Below, one piece after another: positions 4,572 through 48,801 of a stretch of DNA of 64,000 nucleotides; the first letter of the stretch is position 1; each line of letters starts with the position of its first letter. Origin of the DNA: an uncultured Bacilli bacterium. GTDB lineage: Bacteria > Bacillota_I > Bacilli_A > RFN20 > CAG-826. Below the pieces are notes generated by a model. It had not been told where the DNA came from. It did not search any database and worked only from the letters and a program-made list of their open reading frames with translations. The translations under genes were made by a program, and so were the position numbers. The stretch spans positions 19,356 to 83,355 of the forward strand of contig CALVNF010000003.1 in the NCBI GenBank assembly GCA_944349595.1, read 5' to 3'.

Positions 4572-5480
4572 TTAACCTTTAACAGCTCCTCCAGTAACAC
4601 CACTTACATAATATTTTTGCAAGAACATAAATAATGCGGTAATTGGTATTGCTATTACAATTGCAGCAGCACAGAATTGTTGCCAATATGTATTTCTGTT
4701 TTGAACACCGGCAATCATTTGATTTAAAACAGTTGCAACAGTACCATTATATGGATGTAAAACATACATATAGCTTGCTGTCATAAAGTCACCCCAAGGG
4801 GCCATAAATGCAAGTAAAGCTGTATAAACAATAATTGGTTTTGAAAGTGGAACAATAATTCTAAAGAATATTTGAACTTGATTTGCTCCATCAATCATGG
4901 CTGCTTCATCAATTGATTTGGAAATTGTATCAAAGAAACCTTTTGATACATAATATCCCATTCCAGCACCGCCGGAATAAATAATAATAAGAGCAATTAA
5001 ATTTTCTTGTAAACCAACTAATTTTGCTAATTGATAAAATACAATTAAGGAAATAAATCCTGGGAACATACCAAGAATTAAGATAATTCTCATCATTAAT
5101 GTTCTTGATTTAAATCTACATCTTGAAAATGCATAAGATGTAAATAATGTTAATAATGTTGAAATAATACAAGAGAATATTGCAACAATTAATGTATTTA
5201 AGAAAGTCATTCCAAAGTTTACTGGATTTGGATTTAAAGGATCTCCATAAACTCTCCAAACACCAACTGTTGAATCAAGTACTCTATTATTAAATAAGTT
5301 GACGTAATTATCAAAAGTCCATTTATCTGGCCAAAACTTTTTTAATCCAGTTAATGCTGCGCCATCATAGTCACCAAAGGATTGCAAGAATAACCAAATA
5401 ATTGGAAGAAGCCAAATAATACACAAAACTGCTAATAAAATATAAATCAATGTATCAGCAATAATTCTTCTAGTTCTCAT
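4572..5480 (-). CDS. Maltodextrin ABC transporter permease, MalG type
   Basis: 302 aa, six predicted TM segments, EAA loop (IDEAAMIDGANQVQIFFRIIVPLSKP). Its ATG overlaps the stop of the upstream permease (ATGA at 5477-5480). Confidence 0.85.
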   Translation of the reverse strand: MRTRRIIADTLIYILLAVLCIIWLLPIIWLFLQSFGDYDGAALTGLKKFWPDKWTFDNYVNLFNNRVLDSTVGVWRVYGDPLNPNPVNFGMTFLNTLIVAIFSCIISTLLTLFTSYAFSRCRFKSRTLMMRIILILGMFPGFISLIVFYQLAKLVGLQENLIALIIIYSGGAGMGYYVSKGFFDTISKSIDEAAMIDGANQVQIFFRIIVPLSKPIIVYTALLAFMAPWGDFMTASYMYVLHPYNGTVATVLNQMIAGVQNRNTYWQQFCAAAIVIAIPITALFMFLQKYYVSGVTGGAVKG

Positions 5481-8400
5481 TGAAATTCATCCTCCCTTTG
5501 AACAGCTCCTAATCTTGAATACATAATTAGTGAGAAGAATGCACAGATTAAGAATATAAATAAACCTAATGCGGAAGATATGTTATATCTACTTCTATCA
5601 CCAGTAGTTAGTGAATACAACCAGTTAATTAACAAGTCTGTTTCTTTAGCATCAAATAAGAATGGACTCTTTGTAATTTCTCCTGTTAAGAAGAATATAA
5701 CGTTGAAGTTATTAATATTTCCAACAAATGTTGTAATTAAGCTTGGTCCGGTAATAAAGAACATGTAAGGAAGTGTGATCTTGAAGAATTGAGTAACTGG
5801 ACTTGCTCCATCAATTCTACTTGATTCATATAAATCACTTGGAATGTTCATTAAAATACCACTACACATTAACATAGTATATGGGACACCAACCCAACAG
5901 TTAATAATAATAATCATAACTTTAGCTAAGTTTGGATCAGCTAAGAATTTAATTGGTGTTTCTAATAAGGCATTAATTGGACCATCAGTTGAGAATATAT
6001 TTGCAACAACCATTAAGGAAATAAACTGAGGAATAGCAATTGTTATAACAAAAATTGTTCTCCATAATTTCTTTAACTTGATTGATTTCTTATTAATTAA
6101 TAAGGATAAAATAATACCTAAGAAATAATTTGTAAATGTTGCAAAAAATGCCCAAATCAAAGTCCAAAGCAATAATGTACCAATTGTAGTTGGAATTCTA
6201 TCAGCACCATAAGTTGTTTGCCAAATTTCTTTTCCAGTAAACATTGCTAGGAAGTTATCAAACCCAATCCATTTAAATAATTGAGGATACATTGTTGTGT
6301 TATCATAATTTGTAAACCCAATTAGTAATGAACAAATTAATGGGAATATTACAACAATTACAGCTCCTAAAACTGGAAGGAATAAAATGATTCCTGAGAA
6401 TTTATCGGTAAGTAAAGAATTGACAGTCTTTTTAAATGGTTTACATTGACCACAATATTCTTCTTCTTGATATCGTGATTTAAAATCATCAACTCTCTTA
6501 TTTAATTTACTAAGGACATAAGCATCTACTAATTCTTCAAGTAATGCATAAGGAATAGTTTGACGATCTGCAATTTGGCCAAGATCAAATTTTTTAACAC
6601 CCATTTTTTTAGCGACTGTCTTTTTGATCTCTTCTAAAGGTATTCCTTCATTTTTCTTAGAGAGAGTATAATTTACGATATTTCTAGCTCTATCAATTAC
6701 ATTTTTATAAGATATTGCAACTGCTTTTGCAACTTCTCTAGAACATGTAAAGTTAGCAATAATATTACTTGTTGCATAATTTACATTTAATGGTTTAGTA
6801 AAATCAAAAACTTCTACTTTTTTATTAACTTTTAATGTTCTAGCGTATGCACTTTTTGCTTGTTGTAATTCTTCGTTCAACATACTCTTGATTAATTTAT
6901 CACTTTGTAAAGAGTTATATTGACCATCTAATTTATTAATTTTGATTTGATAATCATCTTTTAATGTATAAATATCACGATCTAATTTAAGTTTTAAATT
7001 ATAATAATCAGAATTTATTGTTTCTGGATTATTTTTTAATTCATTTAAATCATTTTCATATCGTGCTTTAAGTTCTATAATTTTGTTCTTTTCTTCAACT
7101 CTTAACTTTTTAATTTCGGTTAGAATATCATTTTTCTTTCCAAGGATTCTAGAATATTTATCCTTAATTTGTTGAACTTTTAAATTATAGTCATTTAATT
7201 TTTCTTCATCTGATTTAAAATCATTAACTTCGTTAAAGTTAGTATTTTTCTTATCTAAATTAAAGAAACAGTTTACTACTTCAACTTTTTCATTTGCAAT
7301 ATTTTCATATGCTTTATTAAAATCTAAATAAGTTCTATAAATATTATATTTGTCATATTCAAAGTGATAATTCTTTTCTTCTAATGAGAAGTCTCTCTTG
7401 AAATCATCTTTGACTTTTTTATTACTTGATAATGATTTTTTAATTTCTTCAAGATAACATACAACAAATTGATCTTTAACATTTAAAGATTCATGATCAT
7501 TATTAATCAATTTTACTAAATCTTTATTACCTTCATAAATATTCTTTTTGACAAATGAAGCAGCATCTTTTGAATATTTTGTAAGAATATTTTCATTCCA
7601 TTGATTAAAATCAAAAGCATTACGAACTATAAATTTTGGCTCTTTTACATTAAATAAGTCAAAACAATCTCTAATATTTTTTACATTTAATGTATTGATT
7701 AAGTCAGCGTTTTCTTCATCTTTTTCAAATTGATTAATAACTTTTGCTAATTCAAATTCATAAGATTCTTTGACACTATCTTTTAGTAAAGAATGTCTTT
7801 CACTGACAAATGAATTAACAACATTAAATAATTTATTAAATAATTTTAATTCAGCAAATTTATTGTTTTCAGTAATATTGTAATATCCATTAATTTTAGC
7901 AATAATTTCTGTTTTATTTAATTTTCTAAAATCAAAGAAATTTAAAATATTAAGAGCATCTTTTTCTTTATTAAATTTCTTATATTTAGAAATATGTTTA
8001 ACAGAACCTTCTTTTAAGAATCTATCAAAATCTTGAACAAAATTATCTTTTATCAACTTACTTTCATAATCTTCTGTTTCAAAAACGTTATTGAAATTTT
8101 TGATGTAAGCTAAATAAAGATTAAGAGTTTTACTAGCTTCTGATAAATCAATTCTATATTTACTACTAATCTTATATATAACTTCTTTTTTAGAGATATT
8201 ATTTAGCAATCTTTTATCTAGTTCAAAAAATCCAAGAATCTCTTTAGCATCATTTAAATTAAAATAACTTGGAATATTTGAATAAGAATTTAAAAACTTC
8301 TCAAAATTGCTATCAAAAGTATCAATAAATAATTTAGTCTTTTCTTTTAAAAGATAATTTGTTTTGTAAAATTTATAAAATTTTACATATAAATCATATA

Positions 8401-43728: not shown

Positions 43729-43864
43729 GAATTTTCCTCCTGTTTTTCTTTAATAGGCTCTTAGTAAATAGCGCTCAACACGAGTTCCCTGACCACCTAT
43801 CATGACAACGCCTATCGGTGTATCAGCAATCTCGCATATCAATACCCTATTCACATGCTTTAAT

Positions 43865-43893
43865 ATAATAGTATATATATAAATATATAGCAA
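43865..43893 (-). promoter_or_regulatory. Sigma-70-like promoter of the S10 operon (-35 TTGCTA, 17-nt spacer, -10 TATTAT) with ~130-nt leader
   Basis: On the minus strand the -35 lies at 43893-43888 and the -10 at 43870-43865. The leader (43729-43860) has noticeably higher GC than its surroundings, which suggests a structured autoregulatory leader. Confidence 0.55.
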
Positions 43894-44011
43894 GAAAAAA
43901 ATGAGCTTTTTTCAAGTTTTTTTTACATTATTACTAAACTTTATAAATTTTTAAACAAAAATATCTAATAAAATAAAGATTTGAAGTGTTTTTTGATTTT
44001 TAAAAACTTTA

Positions 44012-44076
44012 CAAAACCCCAATATTTTATAATTAAATTTTAAAAAAATCCGGCAAAACCTCAATATTTTTATAAT
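44012..44076. repeat. Two imperfect 22-23-nt direct repeats (CAAAACCCCAATATTTTATAAT / CAAAACCTCAATATTTTTATAAT) upstream of the S10 promoter
   Basis: Seen directly at 44012-44033 and 44054-44076. Confidence 0.6.
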
Positions 44077-44130
44077 AGCAAAATAAATTGTCTTTATTTA
44101 ATTTAAAGTAAGTATATTAAAATTATATAA

Positions 44131-44165
44131 ATTGCATTAGCATATCATTTTATTTTTGCAATTTT
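44131..44165. repeat. 35-bp direct repeat, copy B (ATTGCATTAGCATATCATTTTATTTTTGCAATTTT); overlaps the stop codon of the HTH gene
   Basis: 32/35 identical to copy A at 45814-45848. Together they flank the two-gene kinase/HTH module. Confidence 0.75.
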
Positions 44166-44923
44166 TTCTTTTCTCGATAAAATTTATCTATTGAAATATT
44201 TAATAAATTAGCAGCTTCTTTTGATGATATTTCTTTATTTTTAACTCTACTTAATATTTCTAAAAATTTTAATTTATCAATTTTTAGTGGCTTTCTTCCT
44301 TTATATTTATTATTGTTTTTTGCAATCGTTATACCATCAAGTTGTTTTATTTTATTTGCTTCTAGAGATCTAGAATATATATTAATTAAAATATTATAGA
44401 TAAGTTTTCGATTCTCATCATTTATTTCTTCATTATTAATTAAGATATTGTTTCCTTTTGTAATATTATTTAGTATTTTTTTAATATAGCTTGTTGTATT
44501 ATCTTTAGTTACTAAATTATTAATAAGAACTTCTTGTTTTTCTTCATAAGGTATTAAATATAAATAATCTCCAGAATAATATTTATTTGTTTTTATTAAA
44601 TATAATAAAGGATCCATAAATGACATATTAACTTCAGCTAATAATTCATGATAATCTTCTCTATTTTTATTTGGAACCCTTTCTGAAATAAATGTTGGAA
44701 GAACATTATCCCTTATGTATTCTTTTTTATGTAAATCTAAATTTAAACCTGGTATTCCTTGAAAAAAACTTGCAGAAGTTAAACTAATTACCGAATAATT
44801 TGGTTCAAAAACATATTTAAAAGATTCATCATCATTTAAAAAATATGAAATCGTACAAAGTCGATATTCAAAATTGTATTGATCTTTAACGCATATTATT
44901 GCTTTTGAATTATAAGTTTTCAT
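44150..44923 (-). CDS. HipS-like N-terminal domain fused to a C-terminal resolvase-type HTH (candidate antitoxin / regulator of the upstream kinase)
   Basis: 257 aa. C-terminus KGRKPLKIDKLKFLEILSRVKNKEISSKEAANLLNISIDKFYR matches the HTH_7 / resolvase HTH pattern. The N-terminal ~70 aa (..SFKYVFEPNY..SVISLTS..VLP) resemble HipA N-subdomain-1 / HipS; this is from memory and is a hypothesis. Overlaps the kinase gene by 14 nt. Confidence 0.5.
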   Translation of the reverse strand: MKTYNSKAIICVKDQYNFEYRLCTISYFLNDDESFKYVFEPNYSVISLTSASFFQGIPGLNLDLHKKEYIRDNVLPTFISERVPNKNREDYHELLAEVNMSFMDPLLYLIKTNKYYSGDYLYLIPYEEKQEVLINNLVTKDNTTSYIKKILNNITKGNNILINNEEINDENRKLIYNILINIYSRSLEANKIKQLDGITIAKNNNKYKGRKPLKIDKLKFLEILSRVKNKEISSKEAANLLNISIDKFYREKKKLQK

Positions 44924-45785
44924 CTTCTTTTGCCCGTAATTTAATATATGAATATTTTAATATTTTTTCATATCTTTCTTTTAGTATTAATTTATAAAAA
45001 GATTTATGAATTTCGCTAATTAATGGAATTTCATCAATTAATTTATTTATTTTATCTAAATTAATTCTAGGATATATTCTTAGCAAAGCTTCATTAACTT
45101 CTTTAAATTTTAATGAAGAAATAACCTCAAAATATGAACTTTTTTTCCCATTTAGTTTAATTTGTGAGGTTGGAAAATTATAAACTCTTTTGTTTATCTC
45201 TTCTTGATTATTCATTATAAATAGCATTTCATTTTCATCAATTAAATTTGGAAATAGACAAGAGCCATTATCAAATATTGGAGATATTTTATATTTATTA
45301 TTCTTTTTTAAAAAGCCCCAGTTTCCACCATGTCTATCAAAATTACCTAAAAATGCATCAATAATATATACATCAAAAAAAGTAGATATTGTTTCACTTA
45401 CATTTGTTATTTTCTTATTTATTGTTAATAATTTGATAATATCTTTATATGAATATTGATATTTTTCTTTATCTTCATCAATTGTTGATTCTCCAACATC
45501 ATTAAAAGGAACAAAACAATATCCATCACTTGTAAAATCTTTACACGCGACCACTTCTTTATTATCGTATAAGCCTAAGTATGTTTCTTGGCAATTAATT
45601 TTTAATAATTGATAAATATGAGAACCTAAATATTCTGATATATGATTATAACGATAACCAAATGGAGTATTTTTTTGAAATTTAAGCATATAAAAATTAC
45701 CATCTATGATTATTCCTAATTTTCTTTCAGAACCTCCATAGGATTTATTACTTAATTTATAATTATTAAAATTAATTAAAATCAT
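44910..45785 (-). CDS. HipA-family Ser/Thr kinase lacking the N-terminal subdomain (HipT-like), 291 aa
   Basis: Gly-rich loop SYGGSERKLGIIIDGNFYMLKF (compare HipA SLAGAQEK...KF). Catalytic motif IIDAFLGNFDRHGGNWGF (compare HipA VFNVLIGNTDDHLKNFS). Mg-binding ISPIFDNGSCLFP (compare LAPAYDLVS). Confidence 0.6.
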   Translation of the reverse strand: MILINFNNYKLSNKSYGGSERKLGIIIDGNFYMLKFQKNTPFGYRYNHISEYLGSHIYQLLKINCQETYLGLYDNKEVVACKDFTSDGYCFVPFNDVGESTIDEDKEKYQYSYKDIIKLLTINKKITNVSETISTFFDVYIIDAFLGNFDRHGGNWGFLKKNNKYKISPIFDNGSCLFPNLIDENEMLFIMNNQEEINKRVYNFPTSQIKLNGKKSSYFEVISSLKFKEVNEALLRIYPRINLDKINKLIDEIPLISEIHKSFYKLILKERYEKILKYSYIKLRAKEDENL

Positions 45786-45791
45786 GAACTT

Positions 45792-45820
45792 ATTATAATA
45801 AATAAAACTATTTATTGCAA
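45792..45820 (-). promoter_or_regulatory. Near-consensus sigma-70 promoter (TTGCAA, 17-nt spacer, TATAAT) placing the predicted start at or next to the kinase ATG (leaderless or very short leader)
   Basis: The -35 lies inside repeat copy A (45820-45815). The -10 is at 45797-45792, 6 nt upstream of ATG 45785. Confidence 0.5.
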
Positions 45821-45848
45821 TAGCATATCATTTTAATTTTGCAAATTT
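45814..45848. repeat. 35-bp direct repeat, copy A (ATTGCAATAGCATATCATTTTAATTTTGCAAATTT)
   Basis: Sits 29 nt upstream of the kinase gene start and contains the palindrome ATTGCAAT. Confidence 0.75.
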
Positions 45849-45955
45849 AAAGTAAATTAATTAATAAACATTTTATTAATTTATCGTTTAATATTTAAAA
45901 TTTAATAACGATTTAATCATTATAAATAAAACAATATCAATATTAAAAAAATAAT

Positions 45956-47928: not shown

Positions 47929-48801
47929 CTATTCAACTTCTTCATAATAGTAAGAAGTATCAATTCCTTTTATGAATAATTCCCTATTATCGATTTCATC
48001 AGTTAAAGCGTCTTTTAATAACTCTTTAATCTTTACATCAGAATTAGGGCTCGACATCATTGCGTCGAAATAATCTTTTTTGTCAATCTTAGACCAATCG
48101 ATGCATTCTTTAAGTTCTTTAATAAAGATTAAATCGAGCCAAATCCTGGTTGCACGTCCATTTCCTTCCATGAATGGATGAGCAATATTCATCTCTACAT
48201 ACTTTTCCACTATTTCATCAAATGTGGATTGAGGCATTTTATCAATTTGTAATAAGGTTTGGGGTAAGAAATCACCATTAGCAAATATAAATCCACCTTT
48301 AGAGATTGTTTTTGTTCTTATTTTTCCGGCAAAATCATATAATCCTTCAAATATATATGCATGAATCTTTTGAAGAGAAATAGTTTTTCCAACTTCGTCT
48401 TCGCTAATCAAATTTGTTTTATAAAGCTGATGTGCTTTTCTTTTGCTTTGTTCATCAATTGGATCAAGCATACCTGTTATCCAATCTAATACTTGCTTTT
48501 TGTATTTAGATGGAATGATGGTTAAAAGTAATCTAACACCACTCTCATTTATGACATCAGAAACATATTTTTTTCCATCATCTGCATATAATTTCAGTTG
48601 TCCACAAAAAGGAGACAGCTCAGGATTTCTCACCTTAACATTATTCCAATATCTTCTTGGTGAATTCGGTTCAATGAGAATATGAATAAAATCAACCGCA
48701 GAATACCACCACATCGATTGTTCGTTATCCCAAACCGCTCTAACTTCTTTCTTATTAAAATATCTAATTGAGTGTTTTATCATATTAATATGATAACACA
48801 T
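47929..48801 (-). CDS. Fic/Doc-family protein (canonical HPFMEGNGRATR motif) with N-terminal Bro-N/KilA-N-like domain
   Basis: 290 aa. Fic motif HxFx(D/E)GNGRxxR at aa 208-219. The N-terminal ~100 aa (IRYFNKKEVRAVWDNEQSMWWYSAVDFIHILIE) resemble phage anti-repressor-type domains. The C-terminus ...TSYYYEEVE carries an SxxxE-like motif. Confidence 0.75.
   Translation of the reverse strand: MCYHINMIKHSIRYFNKKEVRAVWDNEQSMWWYSAVDFIHILIEPNSPRRYWNNVKVRNPELSPFCGQLKLYADDGKKYVSDVINESGVRLLLTIIPSKYKKQVLDWITGMLDPIDEQSKRKAHQLYKTNLISEDEVGKTISLQKIHAYIFEGLYDFAGKIRTKTISKGGFIFANGDFLPQTLLQIDKMPQSTFDEIVEKYVEMNIAHPFMEGNGRATRIWLDLIFIKELKECIDWSKIDKKDYFDAMMSSPNSDVKIKELLKDALTDEIDNRELFIKGIDTSYYYEEVE

Follow-up and report, generated by a model that had tools for sequence, protein, structure and literature searches.

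A HipA-family kinase and its resolvase-like partner between paired candidate operators in an uncultured Bacilli bacterium: a probable toxin-antitoxin module of the hipMP kind

The kinase and its resolvase-like partner

We analyzed a two-gene module, consisting of a HipA-family kinase gene and a downstream partner gene, in a stretch of 64,000 nucleotides from an uncultured Bacilli bacterium (GenBank assembly GCA_944349595.1, contig CALVNF010000003.1, positions 19,356 to 83,355 of the forward strand). This whole stretch is referred to as the window, and coordinates are those of the window unless another locus is named. The entire module is located on the minus strand, with a CMD/cupin gene on its upstream side and the S10 ribosomal-protein operon on the other, and has a lower GC content (0.20) than its flanks (0.25-0.31). 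An earlier note, made by a model from the letters alone, had described the gene pair and the repeats around it; all of its features were present in the sequence. The pattern seen across related loci fits an autoregulated toxin-antitoxin system. The features are:

45814-45845, minus strand: operator O1 (predicted), 32 bp with inverted TTGCAA ends, TTTGCAAAATTAAAATGATATGCTATTGCAAT; from position weight matrix (PWM) and conservation
45792-45820, minus strand: promoter-like sequence TTGCAA-17-TATAAT, 10 of 12 consensus matches
44910-45785, minus strand: HipA-family Ser/Thr kinase of the CtkA/clade-XI type, putative toxin, 291 aa; from HipA_C, CtkA and PDC-M03A matches
44910-44923, minus strand: overlap of kinase stop and partner start, 14 nt, ATGAAAACTTATAA; from the coordinates of the open reading frames (ORFs)
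44150-44923, minus strand: partner gene, putative antitoxin and autorepressor, HipP-like, 257 aa; from homologues and linkage to the kinase
44519-44923, minus strand: partner residues 1 to ~135, HipS-like N-domain (predicted)
44153-44494, minus strand: partner residues 144-257, small serine recombinase remnant; from the Sin/Tn552 profile match
44131-44162, minus strand: operator O2 (predicted), ATTGCAAAAATAAAATGATATGCTAATGCAAT; from PWM and conservation

The kinase ORF starts at the first possible start codon past a stop. Residues 15-192 matched Pfam HipA_C (PF07804; E=1.6e-13, 51.3 bits, cut-off 30.5), and the same Pfam scan gave no match of the kinase to the N-terminal domain Couple_hipA. 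N-subdomain 1 (~100 aa) is absent from the protein and the Gly-rich loop begins at residue 16, which confirms the previously described HipA core without this subdomain. The motifs YGGSERK, GNFDRHGGNWGF and FDNGS were found. In 44 kinase homologues the residues G18, K22, K35, D150, R151, H152, N155, D172 and N173 are invariant, and they align with the motifs of CtkA. The kinase is therefore probably active.

In a phmmer search of all PDB chains the closest solved relative was CtkA of Helicobacter pylori (PDB 3AKJ; E=6.9e-57), which is 39% identical to the kinase from end to end, and no HipT or HipA chain was reached at E<=10. The comparison with NCBIfam yielded only a weak match to YjjJ (E=0.044), and the PADLOC model PDC-M03A matched over the full length (E=1.4e-31). 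The kinase had been called HipT-like. This holds as an analogy with respect to the missing N-subdomain 1 but not for sequence affinity, and the best label by sequence is a short CtkA-like kinase of the HipA superfamily. Its reading frame overlaps the partner gene by 14 nt, as described before. The overlap in most of the homologous kinase-partner pairs is 4, 8, 14 or 20 nt, which suggests translational coupling of both genes.

For the partner, 312 full-length homologues of ~255-260 aa were found (clusters at 90% identity); a library clustered at 50% identity contained 109 representatives at E<=1e-30. No precomputed Pfam domain was present on 120 homologues among the matches listed (of 312). An AlphaFold 2 model built on 48 homologues was confident, with a predicted local distance difference test score (pLDDT) of 91.9. 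It begins with a beta-rich N-domain (~1-135), followed by a small element in the middle and a long helix that spans 172-203; after this come a GRKP stretch and a bundle of three helices.

The C-terminal half resembles a small serine recombinase, in agreement with the resolvase-type C-terminus proposed earlier. The profile of the partner family matched the Sin/Tn552 resolvase (Bin3, 2r0q) in the PDB with E=1.9e-5, and partner residues 144-253 correspond to Sin 83-197, from the end of the catalytic domain over the E-helix and the arm through the helix-turn-helix (HTH). The remnant thus comprises the catalytic-domain end, the E-helix (172-203), the GRKP arm (209-212) and the HTH (217-256). A match to the DNA invertase family PHROG_125 (E=2.5e-5) was found as well. 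In the distant relatives P0190 and P0191 the same N-domain is followed by a stretch that scores above the threshold of Pfam Resolvase PF00239 (model positions 22/50-145). The window partner gave no match to PF00239; the catalytic Ser region is missing and the homology to Sin starts only at residue 83.

For the N-domain the evidence is divided. The earlier note had compared it with HipS, and in the model a structural likeness to HipS was found. The PADLOC PDC-M03B models, which matched residues 49-172 (E=1.1e-6, partial coverage), speak for it as well. However, a profile of the N-domain from 34 sequences gave no signal against the HipA N-subdomains of Table S1 of PMC8262856 (hhalign probability 0.2), neither the window partner nor 48 family members matched Couple_hipA in Pfam, and Foldseek of the partner model against the PDB returned nothing significant. 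HIRAN had no Pfam match in the partner and these 48 members. Taken together, profile matches and model identify the partner as a chimera in which a HipS-like domain is joined to an N-terminally truncated serine recombinase that lacks the catalytic serine region.

The N-domain was also seen in P0213 and P0215, two proteins of ~1,475 aa in the representative library (family-profile positions 7-125, E ~1e-36). In P0213 it spans residues 12-131, and this protein additionally carries an nSTAND3/NACHT-type NTPase domain. The domain is therefore used outside kinase modules too. In P0200 a fragment of the kinase N-lobe is joined in frame to the partner.

Paired repeats, predicted operators and the recognition helix

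The gene pair is bracketed by direct repeats at 44131-44165 and 45814-45848 that are identical in 32 of 35 positions, as previously noted. They can be extended to 40 nt (35/40 identical, 88%) with a spacing of 1683 bp. The window contained the 31-nt degenerate pattern of the repeat at two places, and none of 100 shuffles contained it. O1 and O2 lie within these repeats in the same orientation, 1683 bp apart. Identical sequences of both were found in the same-species locus L096, where they scored 30.9 bits (O1) and 25.7 bits (O2) with the PWM described below.

The right half-site of O1 is at the same time the -35 of the promoter-like sequence, so the near-consensus promoter reported for this copy was recovered. 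Only 6 nt separate the -10 from the kinase ATG at 45785 and no Shine-Dalgarno sequence is present; the mRNA may therefore be leaderless. With 31 promoter-like matches against 25.8 expected, this AT-rich stretch showed no enrichment, and the promoter call thus rests mainly on conservation in related loci. There, the layout with the -35 inside the operator recurs, with the same 6-nt gap in L007, L013 and L014 and with a leader containing GGAG in L009, L012 and L029. Given this recurrence in several relatives, a leaderless kinase mRNA is plausible. At the other end of the module O2 covers the last codons of the partner (K-L-Q-K) and its stop codon at 44150-44152, and the overlap with the stop codon that had been claimed for this copy is correct. 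An intrinsic terminator was not found 3' of the partner gene.

A weaker repeat is located outside of each operator copy (44100-44120, AATTTAAAGTAAGTATATTAA, and 45844-45864, AATTTAAAGTAAATTAATTAA; 86% identity), giving the plus-strand order X-O2 ... O1-X; in AT-rich DNA this may be due to chance. Upstream of rpsJ two further direct repeats of 32 nt were found 42 nt apart with 75% identity (43997-44028, TTTTTAAAAACTTTACAAAACCCCAATATTTT, and 44039-44070, TTTAAAAAAATCCGGCAAAACCTCAATATTTT), which may be part of the promoter or leader of the S10 operon. The spacer between partner and rpsJ (43729-44149 in the window) differed among the strains of L086-L096 with identical S10, measuring 404-405, 421, ~770 or 812-813 nt, and contained an additional ORF of 92 aa in L089.

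Related loci carried a repeat at the same two positions but with another sequence, and both copies changed together within a locus. Examples are L003 (TTGCAAAAATAAAACTATACCCTATTGCAA), L048 (GTATCAAAAATAAAATGATAATCTATTGATAC) and L030 (TTCGCAA...TTGCGAA). Every copy represents a 32-bp site with inverted ends, and within each locus the two copies share the central sequence. A PWM was derived from the 24-nt core of the site and applied to 86 distinct loci (879 kb). At a threshold of at least 14 bits it gave no match in 608 kb of shuffled DNA.

The upstream site was detected in 58 of the 86 loci, mostly 58-74 nt ahead of the first ATG, and the 3'-end site in 35, where it most commonly started 12 nt before the end of the partner stop codon. 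Both sites were present in 31 loci and the upstream site alone in 27. All 93 upstream and 3'-end sites were in gene orientation. Only six other matches were found in the 879 kb, three of them in promoters of decayed kinases.

The right half-site, TTGCAA or TTGACA, doubles as the -35. In the 3' site the left half codes for the end of the partner (AAA TTG CAA AAA TAA, K-L-Q-K-stop), and the spirochaete loci have GTA TCA TAA (V-S-stop) in their 3' site. Where the stop codon was lost the site was kept as coding sequence, reading LQKEND.LLQ in L007 and L029 and a close variant in L035, L036 and L038. In a distant subfamily (L070, L078, L082 and L085) two tandem upstream sites replace the pair of upstream and 3' site; paired operators therefore seem to be a recurrent need.

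The DNA-binding domains of Hin and of the resolvases recognise hix and res half-sites in this manner, through an outer element next to an A-tract and with a GRKP arm. In 89 partners the half-site goes with the residues that follow the conserved Ser in the recognition helix:

Helix ID (S-ID-K): half-site TTGCA in 42 partners, plus 4 with ATGCA
Helix KS, RS, TS: half-site TTGAC in 23 of 25
Helix EA, RA, RM: half-site TTGAT in 8 of 8
Helix KD: half-site TTGCG in 2 of 2

The mutual information between helix and half-site was 1.585 bits, compared to a maximum of 0.651 in 2000 shuffles, with no correction for phylogeny. The variant half-site GTATCAAAAAT resembles the hix half-site TTATCAAAAACC of Hin. 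Conserved placement, specificity of the PWM and co-variation of helix and half-site support the repeats as candidate operators rather than chance matches, one of the two readings that the earlier note had offered.

Gene linkage, decay and relation to known systems

The comparison comprised ~160 related loci overall. A partner-anchored sample consisted of 80 genome loci and additional look-ups, of which 77 distinct loci had enough upstream sequence. An intact kinase was located directly upstream of the partner in 62 of these 77. In 15 an intact partner stood beside a kinase that was frameshifted, truncated, internally deleted or absent. Several of the 15 retained the last kinase codons or an in-frame stub joining N- and C-terminus, and several retained operators. 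The kinase-anchored sample contained 80 metagenome loci (76 distinct), with 65 intact kinases followed by at least 800 nt. Here, an intact partner was present directly 3' of the kinase in 65 of 65 and none lacked it. A broken partner was found only in L165 and L169, where the kinase was broken too. Within the species of the window, L092 has a kinase split into pieces of 119 and 101 aa next to an intact partner. The asymmetry of 0/65 versus 15/77 is what a toxin and its antitoxin produce, and is the linkage typical of a type II toxin-antitoxin pair.

The scars of kinase loss were often tidy. In L034 an in-frame stub joins the first ~10 codons to the last ~10, and in L021 and L025 just the last ~25 kinase codons remain.

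The window stems from a low-GC bacterium of the gut; a locus with 99% identity to it and the related loci are labelled as metagenome-assembled genomes of Bacilli, 'Mollicutes' or Candidatus Enteromonas. In total the module is patchily distributed and occurs in varied genomic contexts. Among strains sharing an identical S10 or CMD/cupin protein no empty insertion site was found, as the module was present on every contig of sufficient length. IMG/VR viral contigs contained neither relatives of the partner nor the operator pattern.

In three independent lineages a ribosomal-protein operon of the same strand comes directly downstream of the module or of an orphan partner (S10 in the window, rpsF-ssb-rpsR in L001 and rplM-rpsI in L039). 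A general link to ribosomal operons was considered and rejected, since these are three cases among ~70 diverse neighbourhoods and may be due to chance. In L001 the orphan partner is preceded by a 446-aa AAA_14/DUF4143 ATPase (341-1681). Judged by eye, the module is followed in L018, L067 and L070 by large proteins with a P-loop, and in L014 and L080 by smaller ones (128 and 348 aa).

The earlier note had regarded a kinase-first order with a fused HipS-HTH partner as undescribed. However, the kinase-first modules hipMP, hipIN (with a HipS-HIRAN protein downstream) and hipJS have been described (Gerdes, Baerentsen, Brodersen, mBio 2021; PMC8262856), and both proteins match PDC-M03A/B of PADLOC (PDC-M03B in part); the architecture is therefore not new. 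According to that paper, HipM kinases comprise 279-321 aa, lack N-subdomain 1 and have an N-terminal Gly-rich loop. HipP, encoded downstream, resembles gamma-delta resolvase, and the authors postulated that it is an antitoxin which autoregulates; their census contained five modules, and no experiments were made. The present module agrees with this in both respects: a 291-aa core kinase is first in a two-gene operon and a resolvase-like partner follows. The assignment to hipMP is drawn from the published description and not from HipM or HipP sequences. In contrast to our module, a HipS-like N-domain in HipP and operators go unmentioned in the available text of that paper.

From hipBST of E. coli O127 and Legionella pneumophila the module differs in several points. 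It has two genes instead of three, and their order is reversed. HipS-like and DNA-binding functions would be united in one protein, whose DNA-binding domain is derived from a resolvase and is not of the Xre/HipB type. Separate upstream genes for hipB and a ~100-aa hipS are lacking, since the upstream gene is the CMD/cupin gene and the sole partner lies downstream. Shared with HipT is the missing N-subdomain 1, with no sequence affinity detected by phmmer.

More similar are hipIN and PDC-M03, where the kinase also comes first and the downstream protein combines a HipS-like domain with a DNA-binding domain, and the hidden Markov models of PDC-M03A/B match. Here, however, the C-terminus is built from a resolvase-type E-helix, arm and HTH instead of HIRAN, and the match to PDC-M03B (49-172) is partial. 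PDC-M03 was reported from a Psychrobacillus genome as a HipA protein with a HIRAN-domain protein. It belongs to 145 candidate systems added to PADLOC, which were predicted by their embedding in known defence systems.

CtkA (JHP0940, PDB 3AKJ), an active kinase, belongs to the same kinase family, with 39% identity over its whole length and the same catalytic motifs. It differs in being encoded on the conjugative element tfs3 without a HipP-like neighbour, and is described as a translocated kinase directed at the host. No HipP-like partner was found next to ctkA at its H. pylori locus. In L180 (H. pylori CP051496.1) 1.1 kb without a called gene lie 3' of ctkA (4982-6077), where adjacent ORFs of 64 and 161 aa resemble a split gene; the 161-aa ORF had no Pfam match. 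Fic genes adjoin CtkA-like kinases in Helicobacter (L180 6346-7215; L181 3609-3989, directly upstream of the kinase), and according to a paper on ctkA, this gene and fic occupy the same slot of the tfs3 integrative and conjugative element (ICE). In the window a 290-aa Bro-N/Fic protein is encoded 2.1 kb upstream of the module (47929-48801, minus strand; PADLOC PDC-S04, E=3e-121).

The small serine recombinases Sin, gamma-delta/Tn3 resolvase and Hin share with the partner the C-terminal half, which is homologous to Sin from the catalytic-domain end through the HTH. As in res and hix, the site is an inverted repeat of ~30 bp with an outer major-groove element beside an A-tract. In contrast, the partner has a HipS-like domain in place of the catalytic Ser domain. 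The site is 32 bp long compared to 26-34 bp for hix and res subsites, and its placement at the promoter suggests use as an operator.

Proposed mechanism, alternatives and meaning

What was computed here are the identities of the domains, the linkage of the genes, the conservation of the sites and the way helix and half-site co-vary. On these grounds we consider the module to be an autoregulated type II toxin-antitoxin system of the HipA superfamily, of the hipMP kind, with a probability of roughly 0.7. We infer that the kinase is toxic and that the partner neutralises it and binds DNA, and, with the role of O2 inferred as well, the parts would be arranged as follows. By analogy with HipA and HipT, the kinase would be a toxin that arrests growth by phosphorylating an essential component of the cell. 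The partner would be the antitoxin, its HipS-like N-domain docking where HipA has N-subdomain 1 and thereby blocking the kinase. Its C-terminal half would dimerise and bind the palindromic 32-bp operator. The HTH would touch TTGCAA on the outside, and the GRKP arm would reach the A-tract next to it. Since O1 overlaps the -35, binding of the partner there would repress the operon. O2 may add cooperative or looped repression, or may block read-through into the S10 operon.

Several observations weigh against this interpretation. The O2-type site was undetected in 51 of the 86 loci, so the family does not depend on it. Protein constraint explains some of the conservation of O2, since part of this site codes for K-L-Q-K-stop. 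The repeat of L003 spans 54 nt including a -10-like hexamer, so that the second copy could be a duplicated promoter. Furthermore, the co-variation is uncorrected for phylogeny, and the closest studied kinase, CtkA, has been reported as a secreted effector directed at the host and not as a toxin.

A bolder version, which we regard as rather unlikely, is that the domesticated recombinase still synapses O1 and O2 via its E-helix region and loops the whole operon. The HipS-like domains would hold the kinase at the loop, and toxin release would be coupled to the state of the DNA loop (supercoiling, replication, competition by phage DNA). We know of no HipA-type or other toxin-antitoxin system with such a control logic.

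A different purpose is conceivable for the same mechanism. The main role might be anti-phage defence by abortive infection, where the partner would be removed or titrated upon a cue from the phage and the kinase, once released, would stop translation; this is compatible with a toxin-antitoxin system and differs solely in the biological purpose. We rate this as a serious possibility with the odds somewhat against it. Both proteins match the phage-defence candidate PDC-M03 (PDC-M03B in part), the PDC-S04 Fic/Bro-N gene is 2.1 kb away, the distribution is patchy in varied contexts, and PMC8262856 proposes defence roles for the related hipIN, hipL and hipRF/hipRG. However, PDC-M03 is a candidate by prediction only, every sampled strain of the species has the module at one fixed chromosomal site beside the S10 operon, and the partner and the operator pattern are absent from IMG/VR viral contigs. 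The remaining explanations concern the repeats or the kinase. The earlier note had named the footprint of a mobile cassette as the alternative to operators, with the direct repeats as res- or att-like sites and the two genes as an excisable cassette mobilised by a serine recombinase in trans. It is true that in 31 of 86 loci the whole module stands between sites in direct orientation, that the two copies of a locus share their central sequence, that the partner descends from a serine recombinase and that the module is poorer in GC than its flanks. This explanation is nevertheless very unlikely. The partner lacks the catalytic Ser region, and the sites are placed like operators, O1 coinciding exactly with the -35 and O2 with the stop codon. 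In 27 loci only the upstream site occurs, and the distant subfamily has its two sites in tandem upstream. No solo sites were seen outside the modules in the 879 kb, the neighbours are diverse without a shared target site, and the orphan partner locus L001 keeps both sites, so that the kinase was not lost by site-to-site recombination.

That the downstream copy is a second promoter regulated by the partner, or a relic of a tandem module, is improbable, though less so than a cassette. It would place the S10 operon of the window under control of the antitoxin. The 54-nt repeat of L003 with its -10-like hexamer at 17-nt spacing would fit, as would the missing intrinsic terminator after the partner gene and the three independent cases upstream of ribosomal-protein operons. 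But in the window the sequence past O2 yields only ATGCAA-15-TATACT, a poor promoter. In ~70 other loci unrelated genes lie downstream, many of them encoded on the opposite strand, and loci that lost the stop codon keep the site within coding sequence. Finally, the kinase could be a secreted effector directed at the host with the partner as its chaperone or regulator, as its 39% full-length identity to CtkA might suggest; CtkA reportedly enters host cells by translocation and promotes inflammation. We consider this extremely unlikely. No secretion system is encoded nearby, and the gene is located between metabolic genes and the S10 operon, whereas ctkA resides in an ICE with type IV secretion. 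The H. pylori ctkA locus has no homologue of the partner, and the asymmetry between kinase loss and partner loss fits toxicity to the producing cell.

As far as we found, the HipS-like fold predicted for a HipP-type partner is new, and so are the layout of two operators with one at the stop codon, the code of the recognition helix and the asymmetry of decay. To our knowledge, no Hip system has been described with an operator on the stop codon of the antitoxin itself.

Members of the family are abundant among Bacilli and Clostridia of the gut. A HipS-like domain would account for neutralisation and would place hipMP under the logic of hipBST and hipIN. By sequence, the 'virulence kinase' CtkA of H. 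pylori belongs to a kinase family which here appears to behave like a toxin. The recombinase-derived DNA-binding module has a readable code from helix to half-site, which opens the way to specificity-swap work.

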